Source: Deltaproteobacteria bacterium (GTDB lineage Bacteria; Desulfobacterota; Binatia; JACPRU01). Taken from it: 64,000 bases of DNA. Shown one piece after another: positions 4,170 through 20,921 of this stretch; position 1 is the first letter of the stretch, and every line of letters starts with the position of its first letter. Made by a program: the position numbers and the translations under genes. The DNA lies in the NCBI GenBank assembly GCA_016189835.1, contig JACPRU010000033.1:8253-72252 (forward strand), read 5' to 3'. The notes below the pieces were generated by a model. The model saw only the letters and a program-made list of their open reading frames with translations. It did no database searches and was not told where the DNA came from.

Positions 4170-4184
4170 TGGCACGCCGATTGC
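4170..4184 (+). promoter_or_regulatory. Sigma54 (RpoN) -24/-12 promoter TGGCAC-N5-TTGC
   Basis: Sequence TGGCACgccgaTTGC is an exact match to the TGGCAC-N5-TTGC consensus. It lies 57 nt upstream of the flp ATG (4241). A GGAGG Shine-Dalgarno is at 4226-4230. Confidence 0.7.
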
Positions 4185-4240
4185 CTATCCAGCGGCATCG
4201 GCGCACGGTGCGTCGAGGTGACCACGGAGGTCGGCGAGAC

Positions 4241-4423
4241 ATGTTGACGAGAGTTCGCAGGTCGCTGCGCGACCAAAAGGGACAGGGTATGACGGAGTAC
4301 ATCATCATCGTCATCCTGATCGCCCTGGCGGTGCTCATCTTCACTCGCTTCCTCGGCCAGAAGGTCGGCCAGAAGACCAACGAGGCCGGCAACAAGGTCG
4401 GAAGCCTGACGATCCCTCCCTAA
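4241..4423 (+). CDS. flp: Flp-family type IVb prepilin (Flp1)
   Basis: 60 aa. Leader MLTRVRRSLRDQKGQG is followed by MTEYIIIVILIALAVLIF, the classic Flp G|xxxxEY motif plus hydrophobic helix. It is the only real part of the long 2711..4423 ORF. Confidence 0.9.
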   Translation: MLTRVRRSLRDQKGQGMTEYIIIVILIALAVLIFTRFLGQKVGQKTNEAGNKVGSLTIPP

Positions 4424-4438
4424 GGCTTAAAGCACCGG

Positions 4439-4470
4439 GGCTGGGCCGCCTCGGCCGGGGCGGCTCAGCC
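4439..4470 (+). terminator. GC-rich stem-loop after flp1 (possible attenuator or partial terminator)
   Basis: Arms ggctgggccgcc / ggcggctcagcc (11 of 12 bp) with an 8-nt loop, 16 nt after the flp1 stop. There is no U-tract, so it is at best a leaky or processing structure. Confidence 0.35.
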
Positions 4471-4475
4471 GGATC

Positions 4476-4943
4476 GTGCGAACGCCCGCGATGCGCCGCC
4501 GGAGCCCCTGTCGCACATCGGTCAGCGGTCAGCGTGGAGTCGGGACGACGGAGTACGTCGTCCTCATCGTTCTGGCGGGGCTGGCCGCGCTGTCCCTGTA
4601 CGCGCAGTTCGGCAGGTCCGTCGGTGGCAAGGTGGACGTGGCGGGCAAGCGGGTGGAGGCGCTCGGTCAAGACCGAGCAGCGACGGTCGGGGGTGCTGCG
4701 GGCGTCGGGGGTTCGGGCCGGGAAGGCGACTCCGGGGCAGCCGCCGGCGGTGGCGCGGCGGCTGCGAGCGCGGAGGTGTTGCCCGAACCGATCGACGGCA
4801 GTAACCAGACGGCGGGCGGAGGGGTCGACACGCGCATGATCGTGCTGCTCGGGATCCTCGTGGTGGCCGTCGGAGCGCTAATGATCCTGGCCGTCGCTCA
4901 GCGCGTCCGCAAGGACAAGAAGAAGGCAAAAGCAGCGAGATAG
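4476..4943 (+). CDS. Flp-like prepilin with Gly/Ala-rich extension and a C-terminal TM helix (Flp2, atypical)
   Basis: 155 aa. The N-terminus GQRGVG|TTEYVVLIVLAGLAALSLY is the Flp motif. The C-terminus is MIVLLGILVVAVGALMILAV followed by RVRKDKKKAKAAR. The start is GTG 4476 or ATG 4491. Confidence 0.75.
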   Translation: MRTPAMRRRSPCRTSVSGQRGVGTTEYVVLIVLAGLAALSLYAQFGRSVGGKVDVAGKRVEALGQDRAATVGGAAGVGGSGREGDSGAAAGGGAAAASAEVLPEPIDGSNQTAGGGVDTRMIVLLGILVVAVGALMILAVAQRVRKDKKKAKAAR

Positions 4944-4955
4944 GGTGGCGCGGCG

Positions 4956-5804
4956 GTGAAGCGACCAAGCAAACGCCCGCAGGCGGGCCAGGCGATGATC
5001 GAGTTCATCATCATCTTCTGGTTCGCGTTCAGCTTCCTCATGCTGATCATCCAGATCACGCTGATGTTCAACGCGCACAGCATGCTGAAGCTCGCGGCCT
5101 ACAACGCCGCGCGGGCGGCGATCGTCACCCGATCGGGAGACGGCCCGGAGAAGCCGGTCAAGCTCGGCGAGATGAAGGACGCGGCCCGCAAGGCCGCCTT
5201 CTTGACCATCCTGCCGGTGATCCCGGGCATGCACGGACGGCTGAACAGCTTCGGCGCCGTGCTGAGTCTGTTCACCGACCTGCCCGCGGACCTGAGCTCG
5301 GTCGGGCTCGGCGCGCTCAAGGGACACACGCGCGGGTTGATCGGAGTGGCCGTCGAGTACTTCGGCGGCGGGTTCGATCTGACGAATCAGGCGCAGAAAT
5401 TCTTCGACGTGAAGTTCGTCAATCCCACCAATCTCGACCAGGAGATCGATTCGATCCCCGGCCGGATCGAGTTCGACGACACCTCGAGGACCAGCCTCAC
5501 CAATCCGAATCAGAGCAATCTGATCAAGGTCGTGGTCACCTGGTACTATCCGCTGGTCATCCCGTTCGCCGATCAGATCATCTACGCGTACACCCACACG
5601 GCCGACGTGATCATGGGGTTGGCGCAGACCAGCCCATCGACGATCATCGACGTCGCGCTCGGCAGCTACCAGCGACGCCCGGTCTGGGAAGTCGGCTGGG
5701 TGTTTCGTTCGAGCGCGTTCACGTTCTCCAACCTGTTCGGGTTCCGCGTGCCGCTGCGCCAGAGCTACGTGATGCGCATGCAGTGGGATCGGGGCCCCGA
5801 CTGA
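4956..5804 (+). CDS. TadE-like pseudopilin
   Basis: 282 aa. The N-terminus RPQAGQA|MIEFIIIFWFAFSFLMLIIQITLMF is typical of the TadE/TadG N-terminal domain. Confidence 0.8.
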   Translation: MKRPSKRPQAGQAMIEFIIIFWFAFSFLMLIIQITLMFNAHSMLKLAAYNAARAAIVTRSGDGPEKPVKLGEMKDAARKAAFLTILPVIPGMHGRLNSFGAVLSLFTDLPADLSSVGLGALKGHTRGLIGVAVEYFGGGFDLTNQAQKFFDVKFVNPTNLDQEIDSIPGRIEFDDTSRTSLTNPNQSNLIKVVVTWYYPLVIPFADQIIYAYTHTADVIMGLAQTSPSTIIDVALGSYQRRPVWEVGWVFRSSAFTFSNLFGFRVPLRQSYVMRMQWDRGPD

Positions 5805-5807
5805 CGC

Positions 5808-7736
5808 ATGGGAAAGCGGACGATGGCGAAGAAGCCCGGCCCACGCCCGTTCCTGTCCGGCCCGCGCCGCTTCCTCGCGCCACGCGGAATGGGCGGCCAG
5901 ATCATCGTCTTCTACCTGGTCTTCATCATCCCGATGGCGATGCTGATGTTCTCGATCTACAACGTCGGCCAGCTCGCCACGGAGAAGATGAAGCTGCAGA
6001 ACGCGGCCGACAACGCCGCCTACTCCGCGGCCGTCTGGGAAGCGCGCTACATGAACCTCGACGCGTACATCGCCCGGGCGATGGTCGCGAACTACGACAC
6101 GATGGCGATGCTCTTGTCGATCTGGTCGGTCGCCGACTCGTGGGACGGGTTCATCGGCATCCTCAAGTTCGTCACGCAGTTCATTCCCTTCGGCATCGGC
6201 GCGGCGATCAAGGCGGTCCTCACGCCCATTCACATCGGGCTGCATCAAGCGAACCGGGGCCTCGCCAAGGCGATCGGCGGCGGCAAAGAGGGCCGGGCGA
6301 TGCTCTACGTGATGGAGATGTACGCGAAGATTCTCGGCTACGCGCAGGAAGCGCTGTACTTCCTGAACCAGGGCGGGCGGACCTCGGTGATCCAGTCGAT
6401 CGCCTGGGGGGTGGACCCCAAGATCCGCTACGTGGGGTTGGCGGAGGTCCTCAACGCGCTCAGCCTCAACTCGCGGATCAAGTGGGACAAGCTCGACTCG
6501 AGCAACGACTTCGACGAGGACAAGGCGCTGCGCCAGACGATCACCCGCTCGCTGAACGAGATCTCGCGCGGCAACAACTTCCGCGACGCCGGCAGCTCGC
6601 TGCTCAGCCCCATCAACGCGGTATTCTCGGTCTTCGATGCGGTGTGCAGCTTGATCACTCTCGGCAGCGGCGGCTTCAGCATCTCGATCGGGCCCGAGGG
6701 GTTCGACGTCAAGGACTTCGACGAGGTCACCGGGCAGATCGGCGGGCCGGGCGAGTGTAACTCGGGCTGCGACGAAGACCAGATCGTGCAGAACGACAAG
6801 CTCTACGAGCACGACTTCGCCGGCGTCGCACTGGAGCTCTGCGTCGTCACGGTCCGGGTGGGCCACCACAGCGACGACGCCTGGAACCTGGGCGGCAGCA
6901 AGGCGATCTCCATGAGCGGCATCAACGTCGCCCCGCCCCACCTGGTCGACGACGTGGAGACCACGGGCGACGACCACGGCGCGTTCCAGGACGTCAAGAA
7001 CTTCACCGACAACGGCATCGACTGCTCCTCGATCGGCACCGATCTCGGCGATGCGATCGGCGGGGGCAGCCTCGCCGACAACTGCCGCAGCAGCTCGTCG
7101 TCCACGTGCGGGTTCAGCGACCCGTTCCAGGCCATCACCCTGACGAACGCGCTCGAGAACGGCGACATCACGCCGGCGCAGTATCAATCGGCCTGCCGCT
7201 CGAGCCTGTGCAGCGGCGTCCCGGAGGGGTCGACCTGCGAGTCCGAGGTCCCCGATCTCGCCGACCGCCTGAACGCCGCCGACCGGTGCGGTTCGCTCTT
7301 GGCGCCGGGCGGCGAGTCGGCGGGAGGCTCCACGGACTTCGGCGGCACGAGCGCCGGCTCGGGCAGCGGCCCCTGCCAGACCGTGTACATGTTCGACACG
7401 CCGCTGAACGAAGTGCAGATGACCTGGTTCGTGCGCGACGACGACATCGACGACGCGCTCGATGGGCGCCGCGTGCAGGGGCCGACGGTCTTCGTCTACT
7501 TCGAGAAGCCGGCCGACAACCTGCCGCTCTTCCGCGGCCTCCACTACCCACAGCCGCTGACGCTCGGCGCCTACTCCTTCGCCAAGGTCTACTACACGCG
7601 CAAGCCCGGCGATACCGCGGCCTCGCCTGGCTCCGGGAACAAGCGCATCGAGGGTAAGGAGACGCTCTTCAACCCGTTCTGGGCGGCCCGGCTCGAGCTG
7701 CCGAAGATACTCGGCAGCAACATCCTCTTCCACTGA
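5808..7736 (+). CDS. TadG-like pilus assembly protein or large pseudopilin with a Cys-rich C-terminal region
   Basis: 642 aa. The N-terminus GGQIIVFYLVFIIPMAMLMFSIYNVGQLATEKMKLQNAADNAAYSAAV matches the Tad_N/TadG pattern. The C-terminal half has many Cys residues (GECNSGCDED, CRSSSSSTCG, CRSSLCSG..STCES). Confidence 0.75.
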   Translation: MGKRTMAKKPGPRPFLSGPRRFLAPRGMGGQIIVFYLVFIIPMAMLMFSIYNVGQLATEKMKLQNAADNAAYSAAVWEARYMNLDAYIARAMVANYDTMAMLLSIWSVADSWDGFIGILKFVTQFIPFGIGAAIKAVLTPIHIGLHQANRGLAKAIGGGKEGRAMLYVMEMYAKILGYAQEALYFLNQGGRTSVIQSIAWGVDPKIRYVGLAEVLNALSLNSRIKWDKLDSSNDFDEDKALRQTITRSLNEISRGNNFRDAGSSLLSPINAVFSVFDAVCSLITLGSGGFSISIGPEGFDVKDFDEVTGQIGGPGECNSGCDEDQIVQNDKLYEHDFAGVALELCVVTVRVGHHSDDAWNLGGSKAISMSGINVAPPHLVDDVETTGDDHGAFQDVKNFTDNGIDCSSIGTDLGDAIGGGSLADNCRSSSSSTCGFSDPFQAITLTNALENGDITPAQYQSACRSSLCSGVPEGSTCESEVPDLADRLNAADRCGSLLAPGGESAGGSTDFGGTSAGSGSGPCQTVYMFDTPLNEVQMTWFVRDDDIDDALDGRRVQGPTVFVYFEKPADNLPLFRGLHYPQPLTLGAYSFAKVYYTRKPGDTAASPGSGNKRIEGKETLFNPFWAARLELPKILGSNILFH

Positions 7737-7739
7737 GCG

Positions 7740-8852
7740 ATGGCTTCGCGACGATCATCGGCGAGCGCCCGCGATCACGGCCAGTCCCTGGTCGAGACGG
7801 TGATCTTCCTGCCCGTCCTGGTCATCATCTTCCTCGGCATGTTCTACCTGAAGGGCCTGCTCGACACCAAGATGCGGGCGGTCGAGGCGGCGCGCTACGT
7901 CACCTGGGAGAACACCTGGATCCCGCGCGAAGGGATCAACCTGAACGTCGCCGAGGACGGCCGCGCTCGCGGTCACAAGGGCAACGCGACGCTGCGCAAC
8001 GAGCTGATCCAGCTCGGCCTCGGAGCTTATCTCTGCAACTCTTGCCCCGCGCAGGGAGTCCAGGGCACGAAGCGCAAGGAGGGACTCGGCGACTACCTGA
8101 GCCGCGTCCAGCCGGGATCCGCGCCGATGACGACGACCATCCCCGCGGTGGTGACCCAGCTCTTCGGCGACCTCGCCGGCTTCGGCGGCGGCAGCACTTC
8201 GGCGTTCACGTCGAATCCCGACGGCCCGCCGAGCACCGGCGGCGGGTCGTCGAGCGGCAGCGGTGCGCTGTCGAGCCTCGATCTCGGCAGCGGCCTGAGC
8301 GACATCTTGAACATCGTCGGCGGAGCCGCCTTCACGGTCTACGGGGTCATGGGCCACCAGACCAAGTGGGGGACGGAGAGCGACGAGTCGGTGCTCACCT
8401 CCCAGGTCGTCTACAAGTACGACGCGGGGGGGACGACGATCTTCGTGCCGCGCTTCGTCTCCGAGCAGTCGAGCATCCTCTCCCACCCCTTCAACATCAA
8501 GCGCAGCAACGACAACGAGGAGCACCATCGCCTGGCGGGCGACGGCAGCTCGTGCACGGACACCAACAACCTCGGCCACATCTTCGATCTCTGGCTCTTC
8601 CCCTCGGGGCAGCCGACGGCGCTGCGCATTCCGAAATGCGCCTTCGCGGCGATCGCGACCGTCACCAATTTTCTCAGCGCCCTGAACCCGTTCTCGCCCA
8701 GCGTGCCGCTGCGGCTCCCGAACGGCACGCTCAAGGAGTACCCGGAGATGGATCTGCCGGCCAGCTCGGGGGTCGGCGGCGGCCCGTCGGGCTCGGGAGG
8801 CGGCACCGGCAGCGGCCTGGGCGGCGGCAGCTCGACGCCGCCGGGATCGTGA
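7740..8852 (+). CDS. TadE-like pseudopilin with a Gly/Ser-rich tail
   Basis: 370 aa. RDHGQS|LVETVIFLPVLVIIFLGMFYL is the TadE N-terminal motif. The C-terminus is GGGPSGSGGGTGSGLGGGSS. Confidence 0.75.
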   Translation: MASRRSSASARDHGQSLVETVIFLPVLVIIFLGMFYLKGLLDTKMRAVEAARYVTWENTWIPREGINLNVAEDGRARGHKGNATLRNELIQLGLGAYLCNSCPAQGVQGTKRKEGLGDYLSRVQPGSAPMTTTIPAVVTQLFGDLAGFGGGSTSAFTSNPDGPPSTGGGSSSGSGALSSLDLGSGLSDILNIVGGAAFTVYGVMGHQTKWGTESDESVLTSQVVYKYDAGGTTIFVPRFVSEQSSILSHPFNIKRSNDNEEHHRLAGDGSSCTDTNNLGHIFDLWLFPSGQPTALRIPKCAFAAIATVTNFLSALNPFSPSVPLRLPNGTLKEYPEMDLPASSGVGGGPSGSGGGTGSGLGGGSSTPPGS

Positions 8853-8863
8853 GGTCGCTATCG

Positions 8864-9658
8864 ATGAAGCGCAGAGTGCTGCCGTCGTGGGTTCACCTGG
8901 TCACCGCCGGGTTGATCGGCGCCCTGTTCCTGGCGTTCCTCATCGTGCGCAGCGGCGGCGTCGAGGCGCGCGCGCAGTCGTTCTTCGATCTGATCGCGCG
9001 GGGCACCGCGCCGATCCTGAATGTGGACTCGATGCTCGGCCGGCGAACCGCCGAGCCGGCGCAGGGCTCCTACGTGCTGAACGGCATGCACGTGAAGTAC
9101 TTCACGATGGGCGCGCCGCAGGGGGGCGGGAGGACGATCATCGAGCTCGAGAACCTGATGGCGCGGGCCGGCTACATCCACCGCATCATTCCGGTCCAGG
9201 GCGTGCCCACGCTGGTCGGCATCCATCCCGAGACCAAGATGCTGCTGACCGCGCGGCCGGGGCGCGACCGCCGGGGCGCTCCCGCCATTCGCTTCTCGCA
9301 GCAGAACCTCTCCGAGCTGCGCGAGGACTTCCCGGCGGAGATCCCCGGCGTGCCGGTCTATCCCGGGGCGAGCGGCAAGATGCTGATCTCGTCGGAGGGC
9401 GGCGCCAAGAGCGAGAGCCTGATGTACGCGGCCGGCGGCACGGCCGAGGACATCAGGCGCTACTACCTGGCGGAGATGCAGCTCGCGGGCTGGTCGCCGG
9501 TCGTCGCTCCGCCCGCGCCGGCCGGCCTCGCCGCCGGGGTGATGTTCTTCTCGAGGGGCGGGGAAGAGGCATCGGTGCTGCTGGCCGAAATCCCGCAAAC
9601 CGCCGCCGCGATGGTGCTGGTGACGGTCGGCGGCGCGCACGCGGCGGAGGCCGGATGA
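8864..9658 (+). CDS. N-terminally membrane-anchored hypothetical protein within the Tad operon
   Basis: 264 aa starting at the ATG inside ORF 8042..9658. It has one TM (VHLVTAGLIGALFLAFLIV). I recognise no family. Confidence 0.55.
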   Translation: MKRRVLPSWVHLVTAGLIGALFLAFLIVRSGGVEARAQSFFDLIARGTAPILNVDSMLGRRTAEPAQGSYVLNGMHVKYFTMGAPQGGGRTIIELENLMARAGYIHRIIPVQGVPTLVGIHPETKMLLTARPGRDRRGAPAIRFSQQNLSELREDFPAEIPGVPVYPGASGKMLISSEGGAKSESLMYAAGGTAEDIRRYYLAEMQLAGWSPVVAPPAPAGLAAGVMFFSRGGEEASVLLAEIPQTAAAMVLVTVGGAHAAEAG

Positions 9659-9698
9659 CGCCGCGCGCGACGCCCCGGCGATCCGCCGGCCGGCGAGG

Positions 9699-9728
9699 TT
9701 GTCAAATCACGACGCGGTGTCCTATAGG
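9699..9728 (+). promoter_or_regulatory. Candidate sigma70-type promoter (TTGTCA -N18- TATAGG) for flp3-cpaB
   Basis: -35 TTGTCA at 9699-9704 and -10 TATAGG at 9723-9728, followed by AGGAAG and ATG 9738. Motif match only. Confidence 0.35.
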
Positions 9729-9737
9729 AAGCTGGCC

Positions 9738-9914
9738 ATGAGCGAGTGCAAGCCCGCCTCACGACGTCGCGAGCGCGGTCAGGCGATGACGGAGTACGTC
9801 GTGCTTCTGTTCGGCTGCATGCTCGGGCTGCTGGCGATCCTGACGCCGATGGCCAACGCGATTCACAACTACATGAAGTCGATCTACTTCTGCGCGTCGC
9901 TGCCGTTCCCGTGA
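9738..9914 (+). CDS. Flp-family prepilin (Flp3)
   Basis: 58 aa. MSECKPASRRRERGQA|MTEYVVLLFGCMLGLLAIL is the Flp EY motif. I prefer the ATG with upstream AGGAAG over the TTG at 9699. Confidence 0.8.
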   Translation: MSECKPASRRRERGQAMTEYVVLLFGCMLGLLAILTPMANAIHNYMKSIYFCASLPFP

Positions 9915-9957
9915 GCCCGTCGAGCCTTCACGTCCCGAGGCGGTAGGGGAGGATGCC

Positions 9958-10785
9958 ATGCAGAGTCGTATGCCGATCGTCGTTGCGCTCGTGGTCGCGG
10001 TCGCGGCGATCATTCTCACCAATCTGTACATCGAGCAGATCCGCCGGGAGTCCGAGCCGGCCACGTCGACCGTGATGGTGGCGTCCCGCGACCTGACGCC
10101 GGGGACGATCCTCGCCAAGGAGGACATCGCGTTCGCCGTCCGCTACACCCAGGCGCTGCCGCGGTTCAACGTGCCGTACAACGAGAACACGCTGTATCTC
10201 GGTCAGGAGCTGACGATCGCCGTGACCAAGGACGACTACATCCTGTCGACCTACTTCGGCGGCGGCGCGCCCGGCGAGCGCAAGCTCTCGCAGAAGGTCG
10301 ACGCCAAGCTCAATCAGCGCGCGATGACGATCCCGGTCGACAACGAGCAGGGTCTCGAGGGCTCGATCCTGCCGGGCGACCGCATCGACCTGCTGCTCAG
10401 CTACCAGACCGCCGTGCCGACCGAAGCGGTCGCGGCGAGGCCGCCCGCGGGGGCCGCCGCCGCCCCGCCGCGGCGCGCCGAGTTCGTCACCGCGTCGCTG
10501 CTCGAGAACGTATACGTGCTCACCACCGGCCGGTACGGCTCCGCCAGCGAGACGCAAGGGCGCTACCGCTCGCTCACCATCCTCGTCAGCCCCGTCGAAG
10601 CGAAGCTGCTGATCTGGGCCATGAACCTCGGGAAGCTCTCGGTGCTGCTGCGCAATCCCAAGGACTTGCAGGCCACCGATCGCGCGGTCGCCTCGGGAAA
10701 CACCGACGATCTCAAAGGCCTCGGCCAGGTGCGCTTGAATATCCCGGAGGTCGTGGCCAAGAATCGGGCCAGCGGCGGCCAATGA
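9958..10785 (+). CDS. cpaB: Flp pilus assembly protein CpaB/RcpC
   Basis: 275 aa. N-terminal TM, then a SAF-like segment (VMVASRDLTPGTILAKEDI) and an RcpC-like segment (MTIPVDNEQGLEGSILPGDRIDLL). Confidence 0.85.
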   Translation: MQSRMPIVVALVVAVAAIILTNLYIEQIRRESEPATSTVMVASRDLTPGTILAKEDIAFAVRYTQALPRFNVPYNENTLYLGQELTIAVTKDDYILSTYFGGGAPGERKLSQKVDAKLNQRAMTIPVDNEQGLEGSILPGDRIDLLLSYQTAVPTEAVAARPPAGAAAAPPRRAEFVTASLLENVYVLTTGRYGSASETQGRYRSLTILVSPVEAKLLIWAMNLGKLSVLLRNPKDLQATDRAVASGNTDDLKGLGQVRLNIPEVVAKNRASGGQ

Positions 10786-10808
10786 GCGGCCCGGCCGCGT
10801 AGCTTGCG

Positions 10809-12434: not shown

Positions 12435-12436
12435 CG

Positions 12437-13300: not shown

Positions 13301-13301
13301 G

Positions 13302-14201: not shown

Positions 14202-14214
14202 GATCCCGCTGCCT

Positions 14215-15639
14215 ATGAACGTTCGCCTCGAGGACGTCGAAGAGATCCGCTTCGTCGTGGTCCAGGGCGCCACCACCGGATCGCGGGTCACCTTCGCCCC
14301 CGAGCCCCGCACCGTGCGCATCGGCCGCGCGGTGGACAACGACATCGTGCTGAACGATCCGGCCGTGTCGCGGGCGCACGCCCGGGTCGACATTTCGGCC
14401 GACGGCGCGCGGATTCAGGACCTCGGCAGCGCGGGTGGAGTCGAGAAGATGGGGTTCCGGCTCGGCGCCGCTGCCGAGCCGCTGGTGAGCGGCGACGAGT
14501 TCAAGATCGGCGCGACGATCCTGCGCTACGAGCTGCTTCTCAAGAGGGGCGCCGTTCGCCGCGCCGCGAAGCCGGAGGAGGAGGCGGCGAAGAAGAAGGC
14601 CGCGCTGCCGGCGCCAAGGGAGCTGGTCGGCGCGGTGAGCAAGTCGTTGCGCCGATTCGGGCTGCGCACCCCGGCGAGCCAGATCCTCGCGCTCGCCGCC
14701 GTGGCCGCGCTCCTCGTCGTCGCCTTCTGGCCGTCGAAGCCCGGCCTGCCCCCGCAAGCCGGGGCCGAGCCGGCGCCGATCAACTTCGAAGCGGTGGTCG
14801 GCTACGTGCCGGGGGGCGACCAGAGCCATCTCGACGGCGCGGTCTTCGAGATCCCGACCGACGCCGACGCCCAGGCGATCTACTTCAAGGTGAACGCGCC
14901 GCACGGGATCGACGTGCGCGTCGGCAAGCAGGTGATCGTCTCGCAGAAGCCGTCCGGCGACTGGCGCGATCTCATGTTGCTGGTGATCCCGCGGGCGGTG
15001 TCCGGGGACGGCGCGCCGCAGTTCGTGCTCGACAACCTCGGCTACGCGCCGGCCGACGGCGGGGTAGACCCCGCGGCCGCTCCCGGCTGGGCGGTGGCGA
15101 GGATGTGGGCGGCACGGGTTGCGGCGGGCGCCACGCTGCAGGCGCAGGTCACCGCCGACGCCAAGATTCTCGAGACGCTGTCGACGGAAGTGGCGCAGGA
15201 TTCGCGAGAGCTCTACCGCTTGGTGGCCGGACTGCGCAGCCTCGCGGTGGGGCTCATGAAGCTCGCCGGCCGCCCGGTGATCGTCCTGCAGCTCGGCGGC
15301 ACGGCCCGGGGAGACCTGGTCACGCCCGCCCTGCGGTCGGCGCGCGAGGCGCTCGAGGGCGGCCAAAACGGGCCGGCGCTCGACCGCCTGACGCAGGCGC
15401 TCGGGGCGGCCGAGAGCCGGCTCGATCGCGAGTACCGCGAGCGCTTCAACGCGCTCCAGCTGCTGCAGAAGCGTGGCGCTGGCCAGGAGGTGGGGGCCTT
15501 GCTCGCCTCGCTCGAGCCCTGGATCCCGGAGCCCACCGATCCGCGTCATCGCGAGATCCTCAGCCAGAAGCAAAACCTTGATGCGGCGGCCCAATACGGC
15601 TACGACGAGGCCAAGAAGAAGGCCGAGCTCGAAGATTAG
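14215..15639 (+). CDS. Bitopic FHA-domain protein (cytoplasmic FHA, one TM, about 290-aa periplasmic region)
   Basis: 474 aa. FHA signature IGRAVDNDIVLNDPAVSRAHARVD...SGDEFKIG. TM helix ILALAAVAALLVVAFW. The C-terminal domain is unrecognised. Confidence 0.8.
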   Translation: MNVRLEDVEEIRFVVVQGATTGSRVTFAPEPRTVRIGRAVDNDIVLNDPAVSRAHARVDISADGARIQDLGSAGGVEKMGFRLGAAAEPLVSGDEFKIGATILRYELLLKRGAVRRAAKPEEEAAKKKAALPAPRELVGAVSKSLRRFGLRTPASQILALAAVAALLVVAFWPSKPGLPPQAGAEPAPINFEAVVGYVPGGDQSHLDGAVFEIPTDADAQAIYFKVNAPHGIDVRVGKQVIVSQKPSGDWRDLMLLVIPRAVSGDGAPQFVLDNLGYAPADGGVDPAAAPGWAVARMWAARVAAGATLQAQVTADAKILETLSTEVAQDSRELYRLVAGLRSLAVGLMKLAGRPVIVLQLGGTARGDLVTPALRSAREALEGGQNGPALDRLTQALGAAESRLDREYRERFNALQLLQKRGAGQEVGALLASLEPWIPEPTDPRHREILSQKQNLDAAAQYGYDEAKKKAELED

Positions 15640-15648
15640 GCCGGCAAG

Positions 15649-17193
15649 ATGATTCTCTCGGTTTCGCAAGCCGGAAACGGGTCGCCCCGGCGCCTCGATC
15701 TCCAGGGCGCGGAAGTCGTGCTCGGGAAGCATCCCGATTGCGACGTCGTGCTCGCCGACGCGAAAGTGTCCCGCCGCCACGCGCACATCGTGTCCCGCGC
15801 CGGAGCGCTGTTCATCAACGACCTCGGCAGCACCAACGGCACGAAGGTCAACGGCAAACGGCTCGACGGCGAGGCGCCGCTGCGCAGCGGCGACGTGATC
15901 GAGATCGCCGCGTTTCGCATCCAGGTCGACGAAGGCCCCGCCGGCGCCGCGCCCCGGCCGGCGCAGCGGGCGCCGGCGGAGCCGAAGCCGGCGGCGCCGA
16001 AGCTCGCGGAGAAGGCGGCGGAGGCGAAGGCCGAGGAGGAGAGCGAAGAGGCCAAGAAGGCGCGCATGTTCTGGGCCTCGATGGAGAGCTTCTTCCAGCC
16101 GATCTGGCAGTACATCGAGAACCCGTCGGTGTCGGAGATCATGGTGAACGGCCCGCGGGAGATCTTCTTCGAGAGGAAGGGGAAGCTCGAGCGGTCGCCG
16201 GCGACGTTCACCGAGGAGGGCGTCCGCGCGGCGATCATGAACGTGGCCCAGTTCATGGGCCGGCGCGTGAACGAGGAGAATCCCTATCTCGACGCCCGCC
16301 TGCCCGACGGCTCGCGCGTGGCCATCGTGCTGCCGCCGTGCTCGCGCAAGGGGCCGAGCATCGCCATCCGCAAGTTTTCGAAGGAGAAGCTGACGCTCCA
16401 GGACCTGATCCGCTTCGGGACGATGAGCGAGGAGATCGTCCAGTTTCTCGACATCGCCGTGAAGCTGCGCAAGAACATGATCGTCTCGGGCGGCACCAGC
16501 TCGGGAAAGACCAGTCTTCTGAACATCATCTCGGCGCTGATCCCGAACGAGCAGCGCATCCTCGTGATCGAGGACTCGGCCGAGCTGCAGCTCCAGCAGG
16601 AGCACGTGCTGCCGCTGGAATCGAAGCCGCCCGACAAGCACGGCAAGGGCGAGGTGACGCTGCGCGAGCTGGTTCGTGCCTCGCTGCGCCTGCGTCCCGA
16701 CCGGATCGTCGTCGGCGAGGTGCGCGGCGGCGAGGCGCTCGACCTGCTGCAGGCGATGAACACCGGACACTCCGGGTCGCTGGCGACGACCCACGCCTCC
16801 TCGCCGTTGCAGACGCTCTCTCGTCTCGAGACCCTGACGCTGTTCTCGGGCCTCGACCTGCCGATCATCGCCATCCGCGAGCAGGTCTCGACGGCGATCG
16901 ATCTCATCATCCAGGCCGCGCGGCTGCCCGACGGGTCGCGCAAGGTGACGCACATCTCGGAGGTCCTGTCGCTGACGCCGGAAGGCAAGTACCAGGTGCA
17001 GGACATCTACCGCTTCGTGCGCACCGGCATGGAGGGGGACCGCATCGTGGGCGAGCATCGAGCCGCCGGAAACCTTCCGTCGTTCCTCGACGAGATCGAG
17101 CTCGCGGGCTTCAAGCTTCCTCCCTCGCTGGCCGAGCTGGCGAGCCAGCCCGGGGCCCGAGAGAAGGTCGCGCGCAAGGCCGGCGCGCATTGA
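15649..17193 (+). CDS. FHA domain fused to a CpaF/TadA-type secretion ATPase (paralog 2)
   Basis: 514 aa. FHA signature LGKHPDCDVVLADAKVSRRHAHIV..STNGTKVNG. ATPase part: [51 protein letters not shown]. Confidence 0.9.
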   Translation: MILSVSQAGNGSPRRLDLQGAEVVLGKHPDCDVVLADAKVSRRHAHIVSRAGALFINDLGSTNGTKVNGKRLDGEAPLRSGDVIEIAAFRIQVDEGPAGAAPRPAQRAPAEPKPAAPKLAEKAAEAKAEEESEEAKKARMFWASMESFFQPIWQYIENPSVSEIMVNGPREIFFERKGKLERSPATFTEEGVRAAIMNVAQFMGRRVNEENPYLDARLPDGSRVAIVLPPCSRKGPSIAIRKFSKEKLTLQDLIRFGTMSEEIVQFLDIAVKLRKNMIVSGGTSSGKTSLLNIISALIPNEQRILVIEDSAELQLQQEHVLPLESKPPDKHGKGEVTLRELVRASLRLRPDRIVVGEVRGGEALDLLQAMNTGHSGSLATTHASSPLQTLSRLETLTLFSGLDLPIIAIREQVSTAIDLIIQAARLPDGSRKVTHISEVLSLTPEGKYQVQDIYRFVRTGMEGDRIVGEHRAAGNLPSFLDEIELAGFKLPPSLAELASQPGAREKVARKAGAH

Positions 17194-17220
17194 AGCCGCG
17201 GCGACGCGAGGGGAGGATCA

Positions 17221-18747
17221 GTGGCCGAAGAGAAGAAGCCGCCCGCGTTTGATCCGGACAAGACCGTCGTCGACGTGCGCCGCCGCGACGCTCCGCCGGC
17301 GGACGAGCGGACCATCGTCGCGCCCCGGCCGCCCGCCGAGCGGCCGGCGGCACCGGCGGCGGATGCCGAACGCACGGTGGTGATGACCCGCCGTCCGGCG
17401 GTGACGGAGGATCTCGACAAGACCCGCGTCGCCGCCGCGCCGGGCGCGGGCGCCGGGGCGATGGACCGGACGATGGTCACGCCGGTCGGAGCTCCGCCGG
17501 CGAGCGCCGCCGCCGCCCGCGGCGGGGATTTCTTTCTCGTGCTGCTCTCCGGATCGCAACGCGGACAGCGCTTCCCCCTCGGCCACGGCGACTTCTCGAT
17601 CGGCTCGGCCGCCGGCGCCCACGTGCGCCTGGCGACCGCCGAGCCGGCGCACGCGAAGCTCACTCGAGAGGACGACGGCTACGAGCTGCAGAACACCGGC
17701 AGCCGCGGCTCGGTGATCGCCCACGGTCGAGCGATCACGCGGTCGAAGCTGAGGACCGGCGACCTGTTCAAGGTCGGCGATCACGTGCTGCGACTGGTGA
17801 AGGTCGGTGACGTCTTCTCCTCGGATTACTCGGACTCGGACTTCGAAGCCCCGGGAGCCGGCCGCTTTCTCGACCCCGAGTACCTGCGCGAGCATCCCGC
17901 CCTGCTCGCCGTGGCGGGCGTCGTGGTCGTCGCCCTGGTGGTGTTCTTCTTCCGGCCGCAGTCCTCGGCGCCGCCCCCGACGCCGACCACCGCGACGGAC
18001 GACAACGCGCAGCGGGCCGAGCGAGCCAAAGAGGTGAGCGCGATGCTGCTCGCCGGCGAGGTGCTCTTCAATCAGGGTCGCTACGTGGCGCCGCCCGACC
18101 GGCCGGAGGAGGAAAACGCCTACGCGAAATTCAACCACGCCCTGGCACTCGATCCGGGCAACGACCAGGCGCGCGACTGGTTGAAGAAGATCGACGGCAA
18201 GCTCGACGAGTCACGCCGCGAGCGCGAGCAAGCCGAGCTCAAGCGCCTCGCGGCGGAGGAGGCCGCGCGGGAGGCGGAGCGCCGGCAGCTCGCCAAGCGG
18301 GTCGAGGCCATCCTGGTGGTCGGAGACCAGCTCTTCCAGGCCGGCAAGGTGGTCGAGCCGGCCGGAGACAACGCGCTCGTGCGCTACCGCGAGGCGCTGA
18401 AGGTCGACCCGGACAGCGTCGAGACCCAGGGGCGCATTCGGCGCGCGATCTACTCGCTGGTCGAGCAGGGGGACGGCTACCGCGACCGGAAGGACAACTG
18501 GCGAGCGCTGGAGCAGTACCGCAAGGCCGACCGTGCGGCCGCGCACAAGGATCCCGAGATCGTCGCCCGGCTCGATGAAACCGAGAAGATGTTGAAGTCG
18601 GGGATGGCGAGCACGCAGACGCGGATCGTCATCTACCGCGACGACAACGGCCAGCTCTACGTGCTCGACGAGATGGACAAGGTGCCCGCTCGATACCGAG
18701 ATCGAGCGATCGAGATCAATCCGGTCCAGAATCCGGCCCAACCCTGA
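17221..18747 (+). CDS. Bitopic protein: disordered Pro/Ala N-terminus, divergent FHA-like domain, one TM, TPR-like periplasmic region
   Basis: 508 aa. FHA-like segment FFLVLLSGSQRGQRFPLGHGDFSIGSAAGAHVRL...TGDLFKVGDHVLRLV. TM helix LLAVAGVVVVALVVFFF. TPR-like helices are (YAKFNHALALDPGNDQARDWL) and (RYREALKVDPDS). Confidence 0.7.
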   Translation: MAEEKKPPAFDPDKTVVDVRRRDAPPADERTIVAPRPPAERPAAPAADAERTVVMTRRPAVTEDLDKTRVAAAPGAGAGAMDRTMVTPVGAPPASAAAARGGDFFLVLLSGSQRGQRFPLGHGDFSIGSAAGAHVRLATAEPAHAKLTREDDGYELQNTGSRGSVIAHGRAITRSKLRTGDLFKVGDHVLRLVKVGDVFSSDYSDSDFEAPGAGRFLDPEYLREHPALLAVAGVVVVALVVFFFRPQSSAPPPTPTTATDDNAQRAERAKEVSAMLLAGEVLFNQGRYVAPPDRPEEENAYAKFNHALALDPGNDQARDWLKKIDGKLDESRREREQAELKRLAAEEAAREAERRQLAKRVEAILVVGDQLFQAGKVVEPAGDNALVRYREALKVDPDSVETQGRIRRAIYSLVEQGDGYRDRKDNWRALEQYRKADRAAAHKDPEIVARLDETEKMLKSGMASTQTRIVIYRDDNGQLYVLDEMDKVPARYRDRAIEINPVQNPAQP

Positions 18748-18816
18748 ATCGACGGGAGGTCCGAGGGGACGGAAGACACTCCGAGGTGCCGCACGGCAGC
18801 GGCGAGGGAGGGCGCG

Positions 18817-19392
18817 ATGGCGGAATACAGGCTGCTTTCGGTAACGTTGAAAACCCCCCACGGTATGCAGAGCTGGCTCAATCGGCTCGGGGCGGACGGC
18901 TGGCGCACCCGGGGGGCGACCGCGAGCTTCCTCCTGCTCGAGAAGTCCACGGTGGCGCGAGAAGCCGCGCTGGTGTCGATCACGCTGCGAGGCCCTGTGG
19001 GGATCCTCCGGCAGGTCGAGCGGTGCGCCGGCGAGGGATGGGAGCTGGGCGCGATGGGAGCGAGCTTCCTGTTCTTCGACCGCCCCCGCGACGGCGCGGG
19101 CCGCAAGCTCGACTACAAGATGGACTCGATCACGCTGCGCTCGCTGGCGGGCGTTCGCAAGCTCGCCGACGACTACGGCGAGCAGGGATGGCGGCTGCGA
19201 GGGTTCGGCCCGAGCCTGGCGATCTTCGAGCGCGAGGAAGAGACCCGCAGCACGTACCGGCACGAGTTCGAGAGCATCACGCTGCGAACGCCCGCGGGGA
19301 TCCAGGCGCTGCTCGCGGCACGCGGCGAGGCGGGCTGGGCTCTTTCCGACGCCTCGCGTAACCTAGCGGCGTTCTCCCAAGCGGTCGGCTGA
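18817..19392 (+). CDS. Protein made of four tandem ~45-50 aa repeats (DUF4177-like modules)
   Basis: 191 aa. The repeats are SVTLKTPHGMQSWLNRLGADGWRTRG..., SITLRGPVGILRQVERCAGEGWELGA..., SITLRSLAGVRKLADDYGEQGWRLRG... and SITLRTPAGIQALLAARGEAGWALSD.... Confidence 0.7.
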   Translation: MAEYRLLSVTLKTPHGMQSWLNRLGADGWRTRGATASFLLLEKSTVAREAALVSITLRGPVGILRQVERCAGEGWELGAMGASFLFFDRPRDGAGRKLDYKMDSITLRSLAGVRKLADDYGEQGWRLRGFGPSLAIFEREEETRSTYRHEFESITLRTPAGIQALLAARGEAGWALSDASRNLAAFSQAVG

Positions 19393-19415
19393 GGCGACGC
19401 TGCGGGGCGGTCAGG

Positions 19416-20921
19416 ATGCTGCTCTCGATCCAGCGCGAAGGCGCGCCGGCGCACGAGGTGAACATCCCCGGCGAGACCGCCGTGCTCGGCAAGCACGCCG
19501 ATTGCGAAGTCGTTCTCGACGACCCGCTGGTCTCGCGCCGCCACGCGCGCCTGCGTCTGGACGCCGGCCGCATCGTGCTCGAGGACCTCGGCAGCACGAA
19601 CGGCACGGAGCTCGCCGGACAGCCGGTGGAAGGACAGCGGGTCGTCGAGCCCGGCCAGGAGATCCGCATCGGCCCGTTCGCGATCTTCGCGTCACTGCCC
19701 GAAGTGACGCTCGTGCAGCACGCCCCGGCGCCCGCCGTCGCGGCGGGCTCAGCCGTGGGCGCCGGGATCTCGGCCGCGGACTCCGTGCAGCCCGCACCGG
19801 CCCCGGCCGCATCGGCGCCCGCCGCCGCACCGGCGCCTGCCGTCGCAGCGGCGCCCAACGTCGCGATGGCGGGCGTGGATTTCGGGCCGCTCGCGCCGTT
19901 GATGGCCGCCGACGAGGTGAGCGAGATCATGGTGAACGGCCCCGACGAGGTGTTCGTCGAGCGCGGCGGGCGGCTGGAGCTGACCGGCGCGTGCTTTTCC
20001 TCGGCGGATGCGCTGGGCGAGCTGATCCGCACGCTCGCCACCCAGGGCGGGCGATCGATCGACGAGCGCCGGCCGATGGTCGACGCGCGCATGCGCGACG
20101 GGTCCCGTCTGAACGCGATTCTCCCGCCGCTCGCGCTGCGGGGACCTTGCTTGACGATCCGGCGCTTTCCGCGCCAGCGGCTCTCGGCGGCGGATCTGGT
20201 GTCGGTCGGAGCGCTGAGCGAGCCGATGCTGGCCTTCCTGCGCCTCGCCATCCACGGCAAGCTGAGCCTGCTCGTGTCCGGGGGAACCGGCTCGGGGAAG
20301 ACCACGCTGCTGAACGCGCTGGCCAGCTTCGTCGGCGACGATCAGCGCATCATCACCATCGAGGACGCCGCCGAGCTGCGGCTGCCGCAACGGCACGTGT
20401 TGCCGCTCGAGGCCCGCCCGCCGGACCCGGACGGCGGCGGCCAGGTGACGATTCGCGAGCTGGTGCGCAACGCGCTGCGCATGCGTCCGGACCGGATCGT
20501 GGTCGGCGAAGTGCGGGGCGCCGAGGCGCTCGACATGCTCCAGGCGATGAACACGGGGCACGAGGGCAGCCTGTCGACGGTCCACGCGAATTCGCCTCGC
20601 GAAGCGCTGTCCCGCCTCGAGACGCTCGTGCTGTTCGCCGGTGCGGACCTGCCGCCGCGCGCGATTCGCGAGCAGATCCTCGGCGCCATCCGGCTGCTCG
20701 TTCACACCGCGCGGGGCGACGACGGCAAGCGGCGCGTGACCTCGATCACCGAGCTCTCCGGCATGGAAGGGGAGCAGTTCACGCTCGGCGAGATCTTCCG
20801 CTACGAGCCCGGCGCGGGGGGGACGGGCCAGTTCCGCGCCACCGGCTACGTGCCGCGGTGTCGCGACCGGCTCGCCGAGCGCGGATTCGCCGCCGACAAC
20901 GCCTGGTTCCAGCCGAGGTAG
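19416..20921 (+). CDS. FHA domain fused to a CpaF/TadA-type secretion ATPase (paralog 3)
   Basis: 501 aa. FHA signature [33 protein letters not shown]. ATPase part: [51 protein letters not shown]. Confidence 0.9.

Follow-up and report, generated by a model that had tools for sequence, protein, structure and literature searches.

The window analysed here is a stretch of 64 kb, in which positions 4170-20921 are filled by 16 tightly spaced genes that lie 1-69 nt apart on the same (+) strand. A sequence-only reading of this DNA had described a Tad/Flp-like pilus locus of about seventeen genes forming one apparent super-operon; the common strand and the tight spacing stand, and the gene calls correct the count to 16. 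For the last five genes the calls agree with consecutive NCBI accessions (MBI2962994-MBI2962998). The locus is a single unit: it has one TadB/TadC platform pair and one CpaB, and internal terminators do not exceed background. Its Tad/Flp-like identity and parts list are borne out by profile matches and prepilin motifs.

Promoter and adjacent regulators

The start originally assigned to the locus, 4170, is the first base of a perfect sigma-54 (-24/-12) promoter element (TGGCACGCCGATTGC, 4170..4184, + strand), located 57 nt upstream of flp1 and the sole occurrence of the perfect form TGGCAC-N5-TTGC in the 64 kb. The related contig L081 carries an equivalent element (TGGCATGTAGGCTGC) 67 nt upstream of its own flp1. 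The first gene after the promoter, flp1, is followed by a strong GC-rich hairpin with a 14-bp stem (4439..4470, +; -36.7 kcal/mol, z -2.2), which is probably an attenuator or mRNA stabiliser; a similar hairpin occurs 3' of flp1 in L081. Directly beyond the locus, on the opposite (-) strand, Pfam scans identify an NtrC-type sigma-54 activator (REC-AAA-HTH_8, 20931..22310) paired with a HAMP-GAF-HisKA-HATPase sensor kinase (22295..23917). The activator, which is probably the regulator of the pilus operon, is kept beside the locus in L081, L083, L085, L087 and the P0009 contig (67-78% identity), and the kinase is conserved in the same relatives.

Pilin-like proteins, tip components and platform

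Three Flp-like pilins are encoded, as the sequence-only reading had proposed together with a triplication of the motors, of which three are indeed present. The 60-residue Flp1 (4241..4423) carries the prepilin motif G14|QGMTEY and matches Flp_Fap with 21 bits (E 3e-4), which is short of the 32.2-bit cutoff; it is the probable major pilin, with a KilP-like role. The atypical Flp2 (4476..4943, 155 residues) combines a prepilin N-terminus (G21|VGTTEY), a Gly/Ala-rich middle, a C-terminal transmembrane segment and a Lys-rich tail, and has two hydrophobic segments in all; Pfam and NCBIfam searches returned no match, and its length in relatives ranges from 68 to 194 residues. Flp3 (9699..9914; G27|QAMTEY), which had no match in Pfam, is kept in L081, L082, L083 and L092 and occupies the place of KilK, the adapter pilin of the Kil system (PMC12075869).

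Between flp2 and flp3 lie the genes of a TadE-TadG-TadE tip set and one further protein. TadE1 (4956..5804; PF07811, 29.8 bits against a cutoff of 22.9; G11|QAMIEF) resembles the tip subunits KilL/M of Kil, and the large minor pilin TadG (5808..7736; PF13400, 37.2 bits against a cutoff of 22.3) resembles the tip backbone KilN. The C-terminal region of TadG is Cys-rich, and its orthologues in L081, L082 and L092 are 40-54% identical. A second TadE-like minor pilin, TadE2 (7740..8852; G14|QSLVET), scores 22.6 bits for PF07811, just under the cutoff of 22.9. The 264-residue product of the next gene (8864..9658) begins with a transmembrane or signal segment and is anchored or secreted; it matches no family in Pfam or NCBIfam and is present in every relative at the same position (33-47% identity). 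CpaB/RcpC (9958..10785) is recognized by RcpC (E 1e-15), SAF and TIGR03177 (99.6 bits, cutoff 71), and the platform proteins TadB (12437..13300; E 1e-18) and TadC (13302..14201; E 1e-14) by T2SSF.

Three FHA-containing CpaF ATPases

All three ATPases consist of an FHA domain and a T2SSE-type core (E 1e-55 to 1e-62), each core retaining an intact Walker A motif, Asp box, Walker B Glu and His box. CpaF1 (10809..12434) is a complete class-III motor ATPase (FHA-IDR-3HB-NTD-CAD). Its alignment to Caulobacter crescentus CpaF begins at residue 92, inside the three-helix bundle of the latter, and those of CpaF2 (15649..17193) and CpaF3 (19416..20921) begin at residues 150 and 146, respectively. CpaF2 and CpaF3 thus keep all catalytic motifs and are without the N1 three-helix bundle, a part of the minimum CpaF architecture for which contact with the platform is predicted (PMC12019362). 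In the AlphaFold2 model of CpaF3 (pLDDT 86.9) the FHA domain is followed by disordered residues 97-149 and then the NTD, with no helical bundle; among CpaF2 orthologues the corresponding linker is variable, except for one conserved short helix. CpaF3, for which about 60 orthologue clusters were found, has catalytic motifs that are invariant across 45 orthologues, and it retains the equivalents of the retraction-critical P386 and R387 of C. crescentus, together with the C-terminal motifs. The R387 equivalent in CpaF2 is Leu, and either Leu or Ala throughout the CpaF2 clade.

Among themselves, the three paralogues share only 43-55% identity. Each has 1:1 orthologues in the relatives (57-88% identity) and forms its own clade in the tree with a bootstrap value of 100. 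Separate orthologues thus exist for every ATPase, so the triplication is both ancient and conserved. The CpaF2 clade groups with the second, minimal ATPases found in the Tad loci of Myxococcota, again with a bootstrap value of 100.

FHA membrane proteins and the repeat protein

Each accessory ATPase gene lies directly 3' of a gene for an FHA membrane protein, in the arrangements fhaTM-cpaF2 and fhaTPR-(rep4)-cpaF3. The FHA-TM protein (14215..15639) matches FHA and Yop-YscD_cpl, and its AlphaFold2 model (pLDDT 85) comprises a cytoplasmic FHA domain, one transmembrane helix, and a periplasmic β-sandwich with a helical bundle. Comparison of the model with the PDB retrieved FHA structures only, the periplasmic fold having no structural match there, and about 27 homologue clusters were found among 5.8 billion proteins. 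The second protein (17221..18747) has an FHA-like domain (Yop-YscD_cpl, 43.5 bits), one transmembrane segment (residues 226-244) and a TPR region that is weakly matched in the window copy (TPR_11, E 0.003). Five FHA or FHA-like domains are therefore present, three in the ATPases and two in the membrane proteins, the number given in the sequence-only reading.

The residues that bind phospho-threonine (G[RK]/SxxH/STNG) are kept in the FHA domains of all three ATPases, with the canonical FHA Arg replaced by Lys in CpaF2 and CpaF3. The FHA-TM-TPR protein of the window has a disordered N-terminal tail with five [DE][KR]T-x-[VI] motifs. Such Thr motifs are kept in the tails of all eight orthologues, which hold 2-5 copies each by the strict pattern [DE][KR]T-x-[VIL], near-matches bringing most to 4-5. 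The first motif, FDPDKT.VD, is near-invariant, and the stretches that separate the motifs are otherwise not conserved. In the distant relative L101, a Ser/Thr kinase domain is fused to the equivalent of the FHA-TM-TPR protein; MXAN_4648 of Myxococcus is listed as a kinase-like/FHA/TPR protein (Seef et al. 2021).

The cytoplasmic protein encoded between fhaTPR and cpaF3 (18817..19392) gave weak Pfam matches (DUF4177/DUF2812-like), and its four repeats are borne out by alignment. It is an accessory component of only some relatives, occurring in L087 and the P0009 contig and missing from L081, L083 and L085.

Conservation in relatives and missing components

Gene-neighbourhood comparison revealed the same gene order on nine or more independent contigs from metagenomes (the P0009 contig, L081, L082, L083/L084, L085, L086, L087, L090 and L092), which probably come from Binatota; for the host of the window, too, Binatota are more probable than Myxococcota. 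Tad relatives with two ATPases are common in Myxococcota. We found no description of a three-ATPase locus in the literature searched; the order is conserved, yet uncharacterised and unnamed there.

Pfam scans of the other sizeable open reading frames in the 64 kb detected no Secretin, Peptidase_A24, CpaE/ParA-type ATPase, Ser/Thr kinase or PP2C, and a related Tad secretin, used as tblastn query against the same DNA, gave no match even at E<=10. The reported absence of a secretin, a prepilin peptidase and TadZ/CpaE from the window is thereby upheld, and with a single unit and no secretin in the 64 kb, the ATPases do not derive from separate systems with their own secretins. Close relatives contain no kinase or phosphatase gene within ±10 kb of the locus. 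LpxA (43150-44103) and a TonB-dependent receptor (49336-51282) support a diderm host, as previously proposed. All five pilin-like proteins carry prepilin-peptidase sites, so the peptidase would have to be supplied from elsewhere.

A proposed single machine with exchangeable motors

We favour, at a probability of roughly 0.55, one Kil-like Tad (type IVc) machine in which motors are exchanged on one platform by FHA/phospho-threonine docking. The sigma-54 promoter that precedes flp1, the major pilin gene, would drive the operon under the control of the adjacent histidine kinase and NtrC-type activator. Flp1 would build the filament, for which a TadE-TadG-TadE tip complex, with Flp3 as a small Flp adapter, would serve as primer, and assembly would proceed on the single TadB/TadC platform below the CpaB ring. 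This platform would be shared by three hexameric FHA-CpaF ATPases. It has been proposed that extension acts through the motor's N-terminal face and retraction through its C-terminal face (bioRxiv 10.64898/2026.02.24.707734). CpaF1 is the complete, KilF-type motor, whose N1 bundle would face the platform in extension, and CpaF2 and CpaF3 may be alternative motors with specialised tasks, of which retraction or a second mode is the most likely. CpaF2 fits neither template cleanly, because it has neither N1 nor the R387 equivalent. Exchange may occur by phospho-threonine-dependent FHA docking to the two FHA membrane scaffolds, especially to the Thr-motif tail of the FHA-TM-TPR protein. In favour of the model are the phospho-threonine-binding residues kept in the ATPases, the conserved Thr motifs, the kinase domain fused in L101 and the kinase-like MXAN_4648; against it count the Lys in place of the FHA Arg in CpaF2 and CpaF3, the absence of a Ser/Thr kinase or phosphatase gene from the window and of such genes near the locus in close relatives, and the unmatched periplasmic fold of the FHA-TM protein. 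The secretin, we assume, is probably also supplied in trans.

It is possible, though a good deal less probable, that all three ATPases serve extension, as alternative motors selected by phospho-signal or by pilin/tip cargo (Flp1, Flp2, Flp3), so that different filaments or secreted substrates are produced on demand instead of extension and retraction being divided. Three Flp-like pilins match three motors, every motor has an FHA domain, the scaffold tail offers several Thr motifs, cpaF2 and cpaF3 each follow their own FHA membrane gene, and alternative tips serve to functionalise Kil pili (PMC12075869). Yet there is one set of tip genes and one platform pair, Flp2 is highly variable in length and is no typical pilin, the two ATPases of L101 and of the Myxococcota relatives are not matched by the number of pilins, and two of the motors are without N1, the predicted extension-face contact.

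The absence of TadZ/CpaE from the window, the missing platform-contacting N1 of the accessory ATPases, the loss of the R387 equivalent in CpaF2 and the pairing of both with FHA scaffolds would also suit an unlikely reading in which CpaF2 and CpaF3 are regulatory or assembly ATPases that replace TadZ/CpaE, for example by localising or gating CpaF1 or by forming mixed rings, and are not platform motors. Against this, the catalytic and hexamer-interface motifs, arginine fingers included, are strictly conserved, the CpaF2 core is conserved to the same degree as that of CpaF1 (distances 0.09-0.13), and the C-terminal-face motifs that touch the platform in the inversion model are kept. We know of no precedent for PilT/VirB11-type ATPases as pure localisation factors.

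A further reading competes solely with the trans-encoded secretin: the channel may have been lost, leaving a filament that is confined to the periplasm or otherwise independent of a secretin. Related FHA-CpaF loci have a short secretin 3' of cpaB, before the first ATPase (L047, L038, L021 and L013 of Myxococcota; also L008, L019 and L064), no member of the three-ATPase family has one in the sequence available for it, and in the window, where none was detected, the gap between cpaB and cpaF1 is just 23 nt. This we consider improbable, as all characterised diderm type IV filament systems use a secretin (PMC12075869), CpaB/RcpC, the secretin-associated periplasmic ring, is still present, the Kil genes of Myxococcus are likewise divided between two distant clusters, and the prepilin peptidase, though demonstrably needed, is missing as well, which requires that some parts are encoded in trans.

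Artefact or decay (misassembly, recent tandem duplication or pseudogenised copies from separate systems), which might be suspected of a metagenome-assembled contig, is effectively refuted by the recurrence of the order on independent contigs that differ in sample and assembler, some of 282-684 kb, by intact frames and conserved catalytic residues, and by the divergence, 1:1 orthology and fully supported clades of the paralogues.

Comparison with Kil and other systems

The closest kin of the locus is the Myxococcus "Kil" contact-killing pilus; unusually, the locus has three motors and no gene for an outer-membrane channel. The resemblance, which the sequence-only reading had pointed out, is now supported by the 64% identity of CpaF1 to M. 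xanthus KilF over 232 residues, the best among the references compared, and by gene order. The latter parallels kil cluster II, which encodes a TadE/G/E tip, an Flp adapter, CpaB, two platform proteins, and FHA and FHA-TPR proteins (Seef et al. 2021). The architecture of the FHA-TM protein resembles those of MXAN_4649 and SctD. Binatota are not known as predators, and a Kil-like killing function therefore cannot be assumed. Unlike the two-ATPase Tad loci of Myxococcota, the three-ATPase family has no secretin gene between cpaB and the first ATPase. With its three motors and no channel gene, the locus is a natural test case for how Tad pili are extended and retracted. PilT-type motors are without N1 (bioRxiv 10.64898/2026.02.24.707734), and CpaF2 and CpaF3 are without it just as PilT and PilU are without the N1 domain of PilB.

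Composition of the pilus locus

The window is about 70% G+C, and genes were therefore chosen by third-position GC, with their starts inspected by eye. This yields 16 plus-strand genes at 4241-20921, separated by 1-69 nt; the sequence-only reading had described about seventeen same-strand, tightly spaced genes, and the arrangement stands, whereas the number does not. The parts list of that reading was confirmed by HMM scans of the locus ORFs. The CpaF/TadA ATPase, the two T2SSF platform proteins and the CpaB/RcpC protein of a Tad type IVc system are all present, the last of these scoring above the NCBIfam equivalog cutoff of TIGR03177. Three small proteins are Flp-like; of these, flp1 alone gives a Flp_Fap hit, at 21 bits and thus below the cutoff of 32.2. 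A prepilin-peptidase site, G|xxxxE[YFT], is found in all five pilin-like proteins (flp1, flp2, flp3, tadE1 and tadE2). One TadE-type minor pilin exceeds the PF07811 cutoff with 29.8 bits and the second lies at 22.6 against the cutoff of 22.9; TadG scores 37.2 bits with PF13400, above its cutoff.

The anchored protein (8864-9658; 264 aa) matched no family in the HMM scans, and PF27226 (AF_1845) is precomputed for its orthologues. The FHA-TM protein (14215-15639) consists of an FHA domain plus one TM helix; a fold search with its model returned FHA domains only, with no match for the periplasmic beta-sandwich plus helical bundle. The FHA-TM-TPR protein (17221-18747) combines a YscD-type FHA-like domain, one TM helix and a weak TPR match, and a 191-aa protein (18817-19392) is composed of four repeats of about 48 aa.

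Pfam searches also identified LpxA and a TonB-dependent receptor in the window, so the host should possess an outer membrane, as had been supposed.

Operon structure and control

The locus had been regarded as a single unit. Its one TadB/TadC pair (T2SSF) is the only platform pair, there is one CpaB, and no terminator-like signal within the locus rises above background, all of which agrees with that view. Internal promoters or terminators that would split the locus were rejected, the pattern matches being at background level and within coding sequence.

A sigma-54 -24/-12 element, TGGCACGCCGATTGC, is located at 4170-4184, 57 nt upstream of flp1, and is the only perfect one in the window. A 14-bp GC hairpin lies 3' of flp1. 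Next to the downstream end of the locus, the opposite strand encodes an NtrC-type sigma-54 activator and a HAMP-GAF histidine kinase. L081, a metagenomic relative, likewise has a sigma-54-like element 67 nt before flp1, a hairpin after flp1 and the regulator pair close by. The gene layout corresponds to a pilin operon controlled by sigma-54 and a two-component system, from which the major pilin would be transcribed in excess.

Directly upstream of the sigma-54 promoter is a gene for a 562-aa polytopic protein (2397-4085, plus strand) with weak GT-C matches (PMT_2, E 0.003; Glyco_transf_22, E 0.035). This membrane protein was rejected as the pilin glycosyltransferase of the system, because it is not conserved upstream of the locus in L081.

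The three CpaF-type ATPases

Three CpaF motors had been recognized from the sequence, and indeed three genes encode an N-terminal FHA domain followed by T2SSE (E 1e-55 to 1e-62): CpaF1 (10809-12434), CpaF2 (15649-17193) and CpaF3 (19416-20921). By their profile scores, all three are assigned to the CpaF/TadA family and not to the PilT family (282-325 bits with the TadA-family model; 47-57 bits with the PilT-family model TIGR01420, against a cutoff of 319). The best PDB match in each case is C. crescentus CpaF (E 1e-93 to 1e-128). The Walker A motif, Asp box, Walker B glutamate, His box and arginines are kept in all three, and these positions are invariant across 45 CpaF3 orthologues.

In their cores the three proteins are 43-55% identical to one another, whereas the identity of each to its 1:1 orthologues in the relatives is 57-88%; each paralogue clade receives a bootstrap value of 100 in a neighbor-joining tree of 99 sequences. 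The orthology and the clade support together indicate that the triplication is older than the divergence of these genomes.

The major distinction among the three is N-terminal. Only CpaF1 has the three-helix bundle (3HB, or N1) of a class III CpaF (FHA-IDR-3HB-NTD-CAD), and its alignment to C. crescentus CpaF (chain 9e24) begins at residue 92, inside the bundle. It is identical to M. xanthus KilF at 149 of 232 positions (64%), over the 3HB, the NTD and part of the ATPase domain; this alignment begins at the first column of the published Kil alignment. Among the references taken from that alignment, KilF is more similar to CpaF1 than are the Bdellovibrio, Desulfo- and Caulobacter sequences. Its clade-mates are Myxococcota and Bdellovibrionota FHA-CpaFs.

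CpaF2 and CpaF3 align to CpaF from residues 150 and 146, respectively, i.e., after the bundle. In the orthologues of CpaF2 the linker is variable and of low complexity, and a single short helix, KKA[KR]MFWASMESFFQPIW, is conserved immediately ahead of the NTD; CpaF2 is thus predicted from its sequence to lack the bundle. The same is predicted for CpaF3 from its AF2 model (pLDDT 86.9), which contains the FHA domain, a disordered segment (97-149) and then the NTD. Yen et al. 2025 (PMC12019362) consider 3HB-NTD-CAD to be the minimum CpaF architecture, with the 3HB predicted to contact the platform N-termini; CpaF2 and CpaF3 lie outside their three architecture classes and contradict the claim of a minimum. 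In C. crescentus CpaF, R387 is required for retraction (bioRxiv 10.64898/2026.02.24.707734). The equivalent residue is Arg in 83 of the 99 CpaFs, including the CpaF1 and CpaF3 clades, and Leu or Ala throughout the CpaF2 clade.

The searches also returned 'CpaF' proteins of Chloroflexota (Caldilineaceae, Herpetosiphonaceae, Roseiflexaceae and Ardenticatenaceae), many of them 775-860 aa in length. With a query of 500 aa these score >700 bits, suggesting that the ATPase module is duplicated or in tandem within one polypeptide.

Components absent from the locus

Pfam scans of all other sizeable ORFs in the 64 kb detected no secretin, A24 peptidase, CpaE/TadZ, Ser/Thr kinase or PP2C, in agreement with the absence of a secretin, a prepilin peptidase and TadZ/CpaE noted by the sequence-only reading. 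Peptidase_A24 and CpaE/ParA-type matches are also missing within 10 kb on either side of the locus in the relatives, and kinase genes were not found near the locus in the close relatives. A related secretin, from a Myxococcota locus, served as a tblastn query; neither the window nor the other loci of the three-ATPase family gave a match at E<=10. In the Myxococcota loci and in several proteobacterial FHA-CpaF loci the query detected secretins, placed after cpaB and ahead of the first ATPase, which argues that absence of the gene from the locus is a derived trait specific to the three-ATPase family.

Distribution of the three-ATPase locus

The FHA-TM protein corresponds to NCBI MBI2962994.1 (100% match; 'MAG: Deltaproteobacteria bacterium'), encoded on a 76.5-kb contig. 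A search of 5.8 billion proteins gave about 27 clusters of homologues for it, every one metagenomic. Comparison of gene neighborhoods, as advised by the sequence-only reading, showed that the order in the window recurs on nine or more metagenomic contigs: the P0009 contig, L081, L082, L083/L084 (673-684 kb), L085 (282 kb), L086, L087, L090 and L092. All three FHA-ATPases are present wherever the contig of a relative extends that far, and the relatives share a flanking synteny of regulators, thiolase, MBL hydrolase and bactofilin. The bactofilin gene, at 27116-27757 in the window, keeps its synteny with the pilus genes in L085. The closest named homologues of CpaF3 belong to Candidatus Binatia, which makes Binatota a more probable lineage than Myxococcota for the three-ATPase locus.

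A tblastn search of plasmids with CpaF1 gave generic CpaFs only, and a search of genome contigs with CpaF2 gave mostly generic CpaFs at <=55% identity, reflecting the universal LQAMNTGH pattern; the latter search retrieved no Binatota genomes, and the Myxococcota two-ATPase loci described below came from it.

L101, a distant relative (51% G+C), keeps the gene order up to CpaF2 and has no CpaF3. In the slot of the FHA-TM-TPR protein it encodes an 810-aa protein (12957-15389), in which an N-terminal Ser/Thr kinase domain is fused to the FHA-like and TPR parts; genes for a PAP2 protein and a 475-aa uncharacterised protein come next. Other neighbors vary among the relatives. A 466-aa Rce1-like (CPBP) intramembrane protease lies directly 3' of cpaF3 in L083 (11418-12818). 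The variable regions of L081 (1-286 and 16019-17103) include, after cpaF3 on the opposite strand, an additional Flp-like gene and a gene for a 281-aa Gly-rich protein. A DUF192 gene adjoins the locus in both L081 and L101 (19662-20054 in the latter).

Myxococcota loci with two ATPases

CpaF2 groups with the second ATPases of the Myxococcota MAG loci L013, L021, L038 and L047 (bootstrap 100). The latter are minimal: at 370-390 aa they contain neither an FHA domain nor a 3HB, and their starting helix is homologous to the conserved helix of CpaF2. Such minimal proteins form hundreds of metagenomic clusters, assigned to Polyangiaceae or Myxococcales where named and carrying no annotation beyond 'CpaF family protein'. 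On a 5.69-Mb contig, one such locus has the order RcpC, a short secretin, FHA-CpaF, TadB, TadC, two accessory proteins and the minimal ATPase; in the Tad/Kil-like loci, L166/L167 (2816-11140) among them, the second ATPase is downstream of the platform genes. The secretin of the Myxococcota loci, between RcpC and FHA-CpaF, is short (442 aa).

The Myxococcota loci share with the window the core order CpaB, FHA-CpaF, TadB, TadC, accessory proteins and a second, N1-less CpaF. They differ in that they have no third ATPase, their second ATPase is devoid of FHA, a secretin is present and the accessory proteins are others. Tad loci with more than one ATPase are frequent among the metagenomes of Myxococcota, and we found no published description of these two-ATPase loci.

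FHA-type domains and a possible docking site

The FHA domains of the three ATPases keep the pThr-binding signature (G[RK], SxxH, STNG), most of which is also retained by the FHA-TM protein. In the FHA-TM-TPR protein the FHA-like domain is degenerate, as in YscD; the five FHA-type domains originally counted in the locus are borne out if this one is included. Over its first ~100 residues the FHA-TM-TPR protein is rich in Pro and Ala, and conservation there is confined to repeated [DE][KR]T-x-[VIL] motifs. By the strict pattern, each of the eight orthologues (8/8) contains 2-5 copies, and with near-matches most contain 4-5; the first motif, FDPDKT.VD, is near-invariant. In this regard, MXAN_4648 is annotated as kinase-like/FHA/TPR (PMC8460266, Supplementary file 1). 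Taken with this annotation and the fused kinase of L101, the motifs make it plausible that the tail is a candidate multi-phospho-threonine docking site for the FHA-bearing motors.

Other features of the window

A cobalamin riboswitch (RF00174, 89.7 bits) is located at 48952-49159 on the plus strand, upstream of the TonB-dependent receptor gene (49336-51282), which is followed by genes for a BtuF-like periplasmic binding protein, CobS and CobT; together these look like a B12 uptake and salvage regulon. A stretch of ~2.2 kb (40910-43149) contains no confidently called gene, and its ORFs are atypical in codon-position GC, with a second-position GC of 0.8-0.93; the one ORF scanned (40910-41479) had no Pfam match. 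A ParB-like gene (35272-36351; ParB_N plus HTH_ParB) has no adjacent ParA. The 92-nt tRNA-Val(GAC) called by ARAGORN at 43971-44062 is probably a false positive, as it is inside the 3' end of lpxA.

Proposed mechanism and significance

The locus encodes one platform, one CpaB ring and a set of tip, adapter and major pilin as worked out for Kil (PMC12075869), together with three conserved CpaF paralogues that are catalytically intact by their motifs, only one of which has N1. CpaF1 would be the KilF-like, extension-competent motor. CpaF2 and CpaF3 may be specialised alternative motors, since PilT and PilU lack the N1 of PilB and since CpaF has been proposed to retract by presenting its C-terminal face (bioRxiv 10.64898/2026.02.24.707734); CpaF2 would fit this retraction template imperfectly, because its R387 equivalent is missing. 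The motors may be exchanged under the control of FHA/pThr docking on the two FHA-membrane scaffolds. The prepilin peptidase, we infer, is certainly supplied in trans; the secretin probably is too, by analogy with the split kil clusters of Myxococcus.

A bolder reading, to which we give roughly one chance in three, is that a Tad lineage gave up the single bifunctional CpaF in favor of a KilF-like extension motor and two N1-less FHA-CpaFs, serving retraction or a second mode, which would act on one platform and be swapped by pThr docking on FHA-membrane scaffolds. Such a system would be an independent, CpaF-family counterpart of PilB/PilT/PilU, and it may run without a locus-encoded secretin.

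How a single CpaF achieves both extension and retraction is debated, with allosteric switching, a rotary mechanism and hexamer inversion all under discussion (PMC6920026, PMC11300603, PMC12019362, bioRxiv 10.64898/2026.02.24.707734). Two paralogues without N1, the proposed extension-face domain, offer separable proteins for testing inversion and division of labour. In addition, Kil-like machines are extended beyond known predators, and the unexplained FHA domains of Kil are linked to a candidate docking tail and, in L101, to a fused Ser/Thr kinase. The significance lies in the field of pilus motors; the host is uncultured, and the functional statements are all inferential.

Comparison with known systems

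The closest characterised system is the Kil apparatus of M. xanthus (clusters I and II; Seef et al. 2021, PMC8460266; Herrou et al. 2025, PMC12075869). Both systems have an FHA-fused CpaF motor, an over-representation of FHA domains and no TadZ, and in both the parts are not all at one site. Kil cluster II also shares a TadE/TadG/TadE-like tip, a small Flp adapter, unknown proteins, CpaB, two platform proteins, an FHA protein and an FHA-TPR protein. The match in order to cluster II (PMC8460266, Supplementary file 1) is by domain architecture only, including that of the FHA-membrane proteins to MXAN_4648/MXAN_4649. The resemblance to Kil that the sequence-only reading had suggested is thus substantiated, both by this order and by the 64% identity of CpaF1 to KilF.

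The Kil papers (including PMC8460266) describe a single ATPase and kil genes split over two clusters. The window locus, by contrast, has three ATPases, two of them without the three-helix bundle, and they are encoded within the platform cluster. The short, N0-less secretin KilC and the peptidase KilA have no counterpart within 64 kb, and sigma-54/two-component control is encoded alongside. Kil mediates contact-dependent prey killing with a needle-less T3SS, whereas the host of the window is probably a member of the Binatota and not a known predator; no T3SS genes were seen in the Pfam scans of the window. By its sequence, the locus is accordingly described as a Kil/Tad-like machine that departs from the single ATPase, the KilC secretin and the KilA peptidase of Kil.

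Canonical Tad systems have one bifunctional CpaF plus a secretin (RcpA/CpaC), TadV/CpaA and TadZ/CpaE. The Cpa system of C. crescentus and the Tad system of Aggregatibacter share with the window locus Flp-type pilins, TadE/TadG, CpaB/RcpC, TadB/TadC and a CpaF-family ATPase. Unlike them, the locus is devoid of the secretin, TadV/CpaA and TadZ/CpaE, and it contains three CpaF paralogues and two FHA-membrane proteins. Recent papers on CpaF (including PMC12019362 and bioRxiv 10.64898/2026.02.24.707734) emphasise one bifunctional motor. In open-access full texts we found no description of multi-CpaF Tad/Kil loci, N1-less CpaFs or Binatota pili, consistent with the earlier impression that a three-ATPase version is undescribed.

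With the type IVa motors PilB/PilT/PilU the locus shares the use of several hexameric ATPases on one platform, with accessory motors that lack the N1 of the extension motor, an analogy also employed in bioRxiv 10.64898/2026.02.24.707734. Unlike PilB, PilT and PilU, the ATPases of the window are of the CpaF/TadA family, and all three carry an FHA domain.
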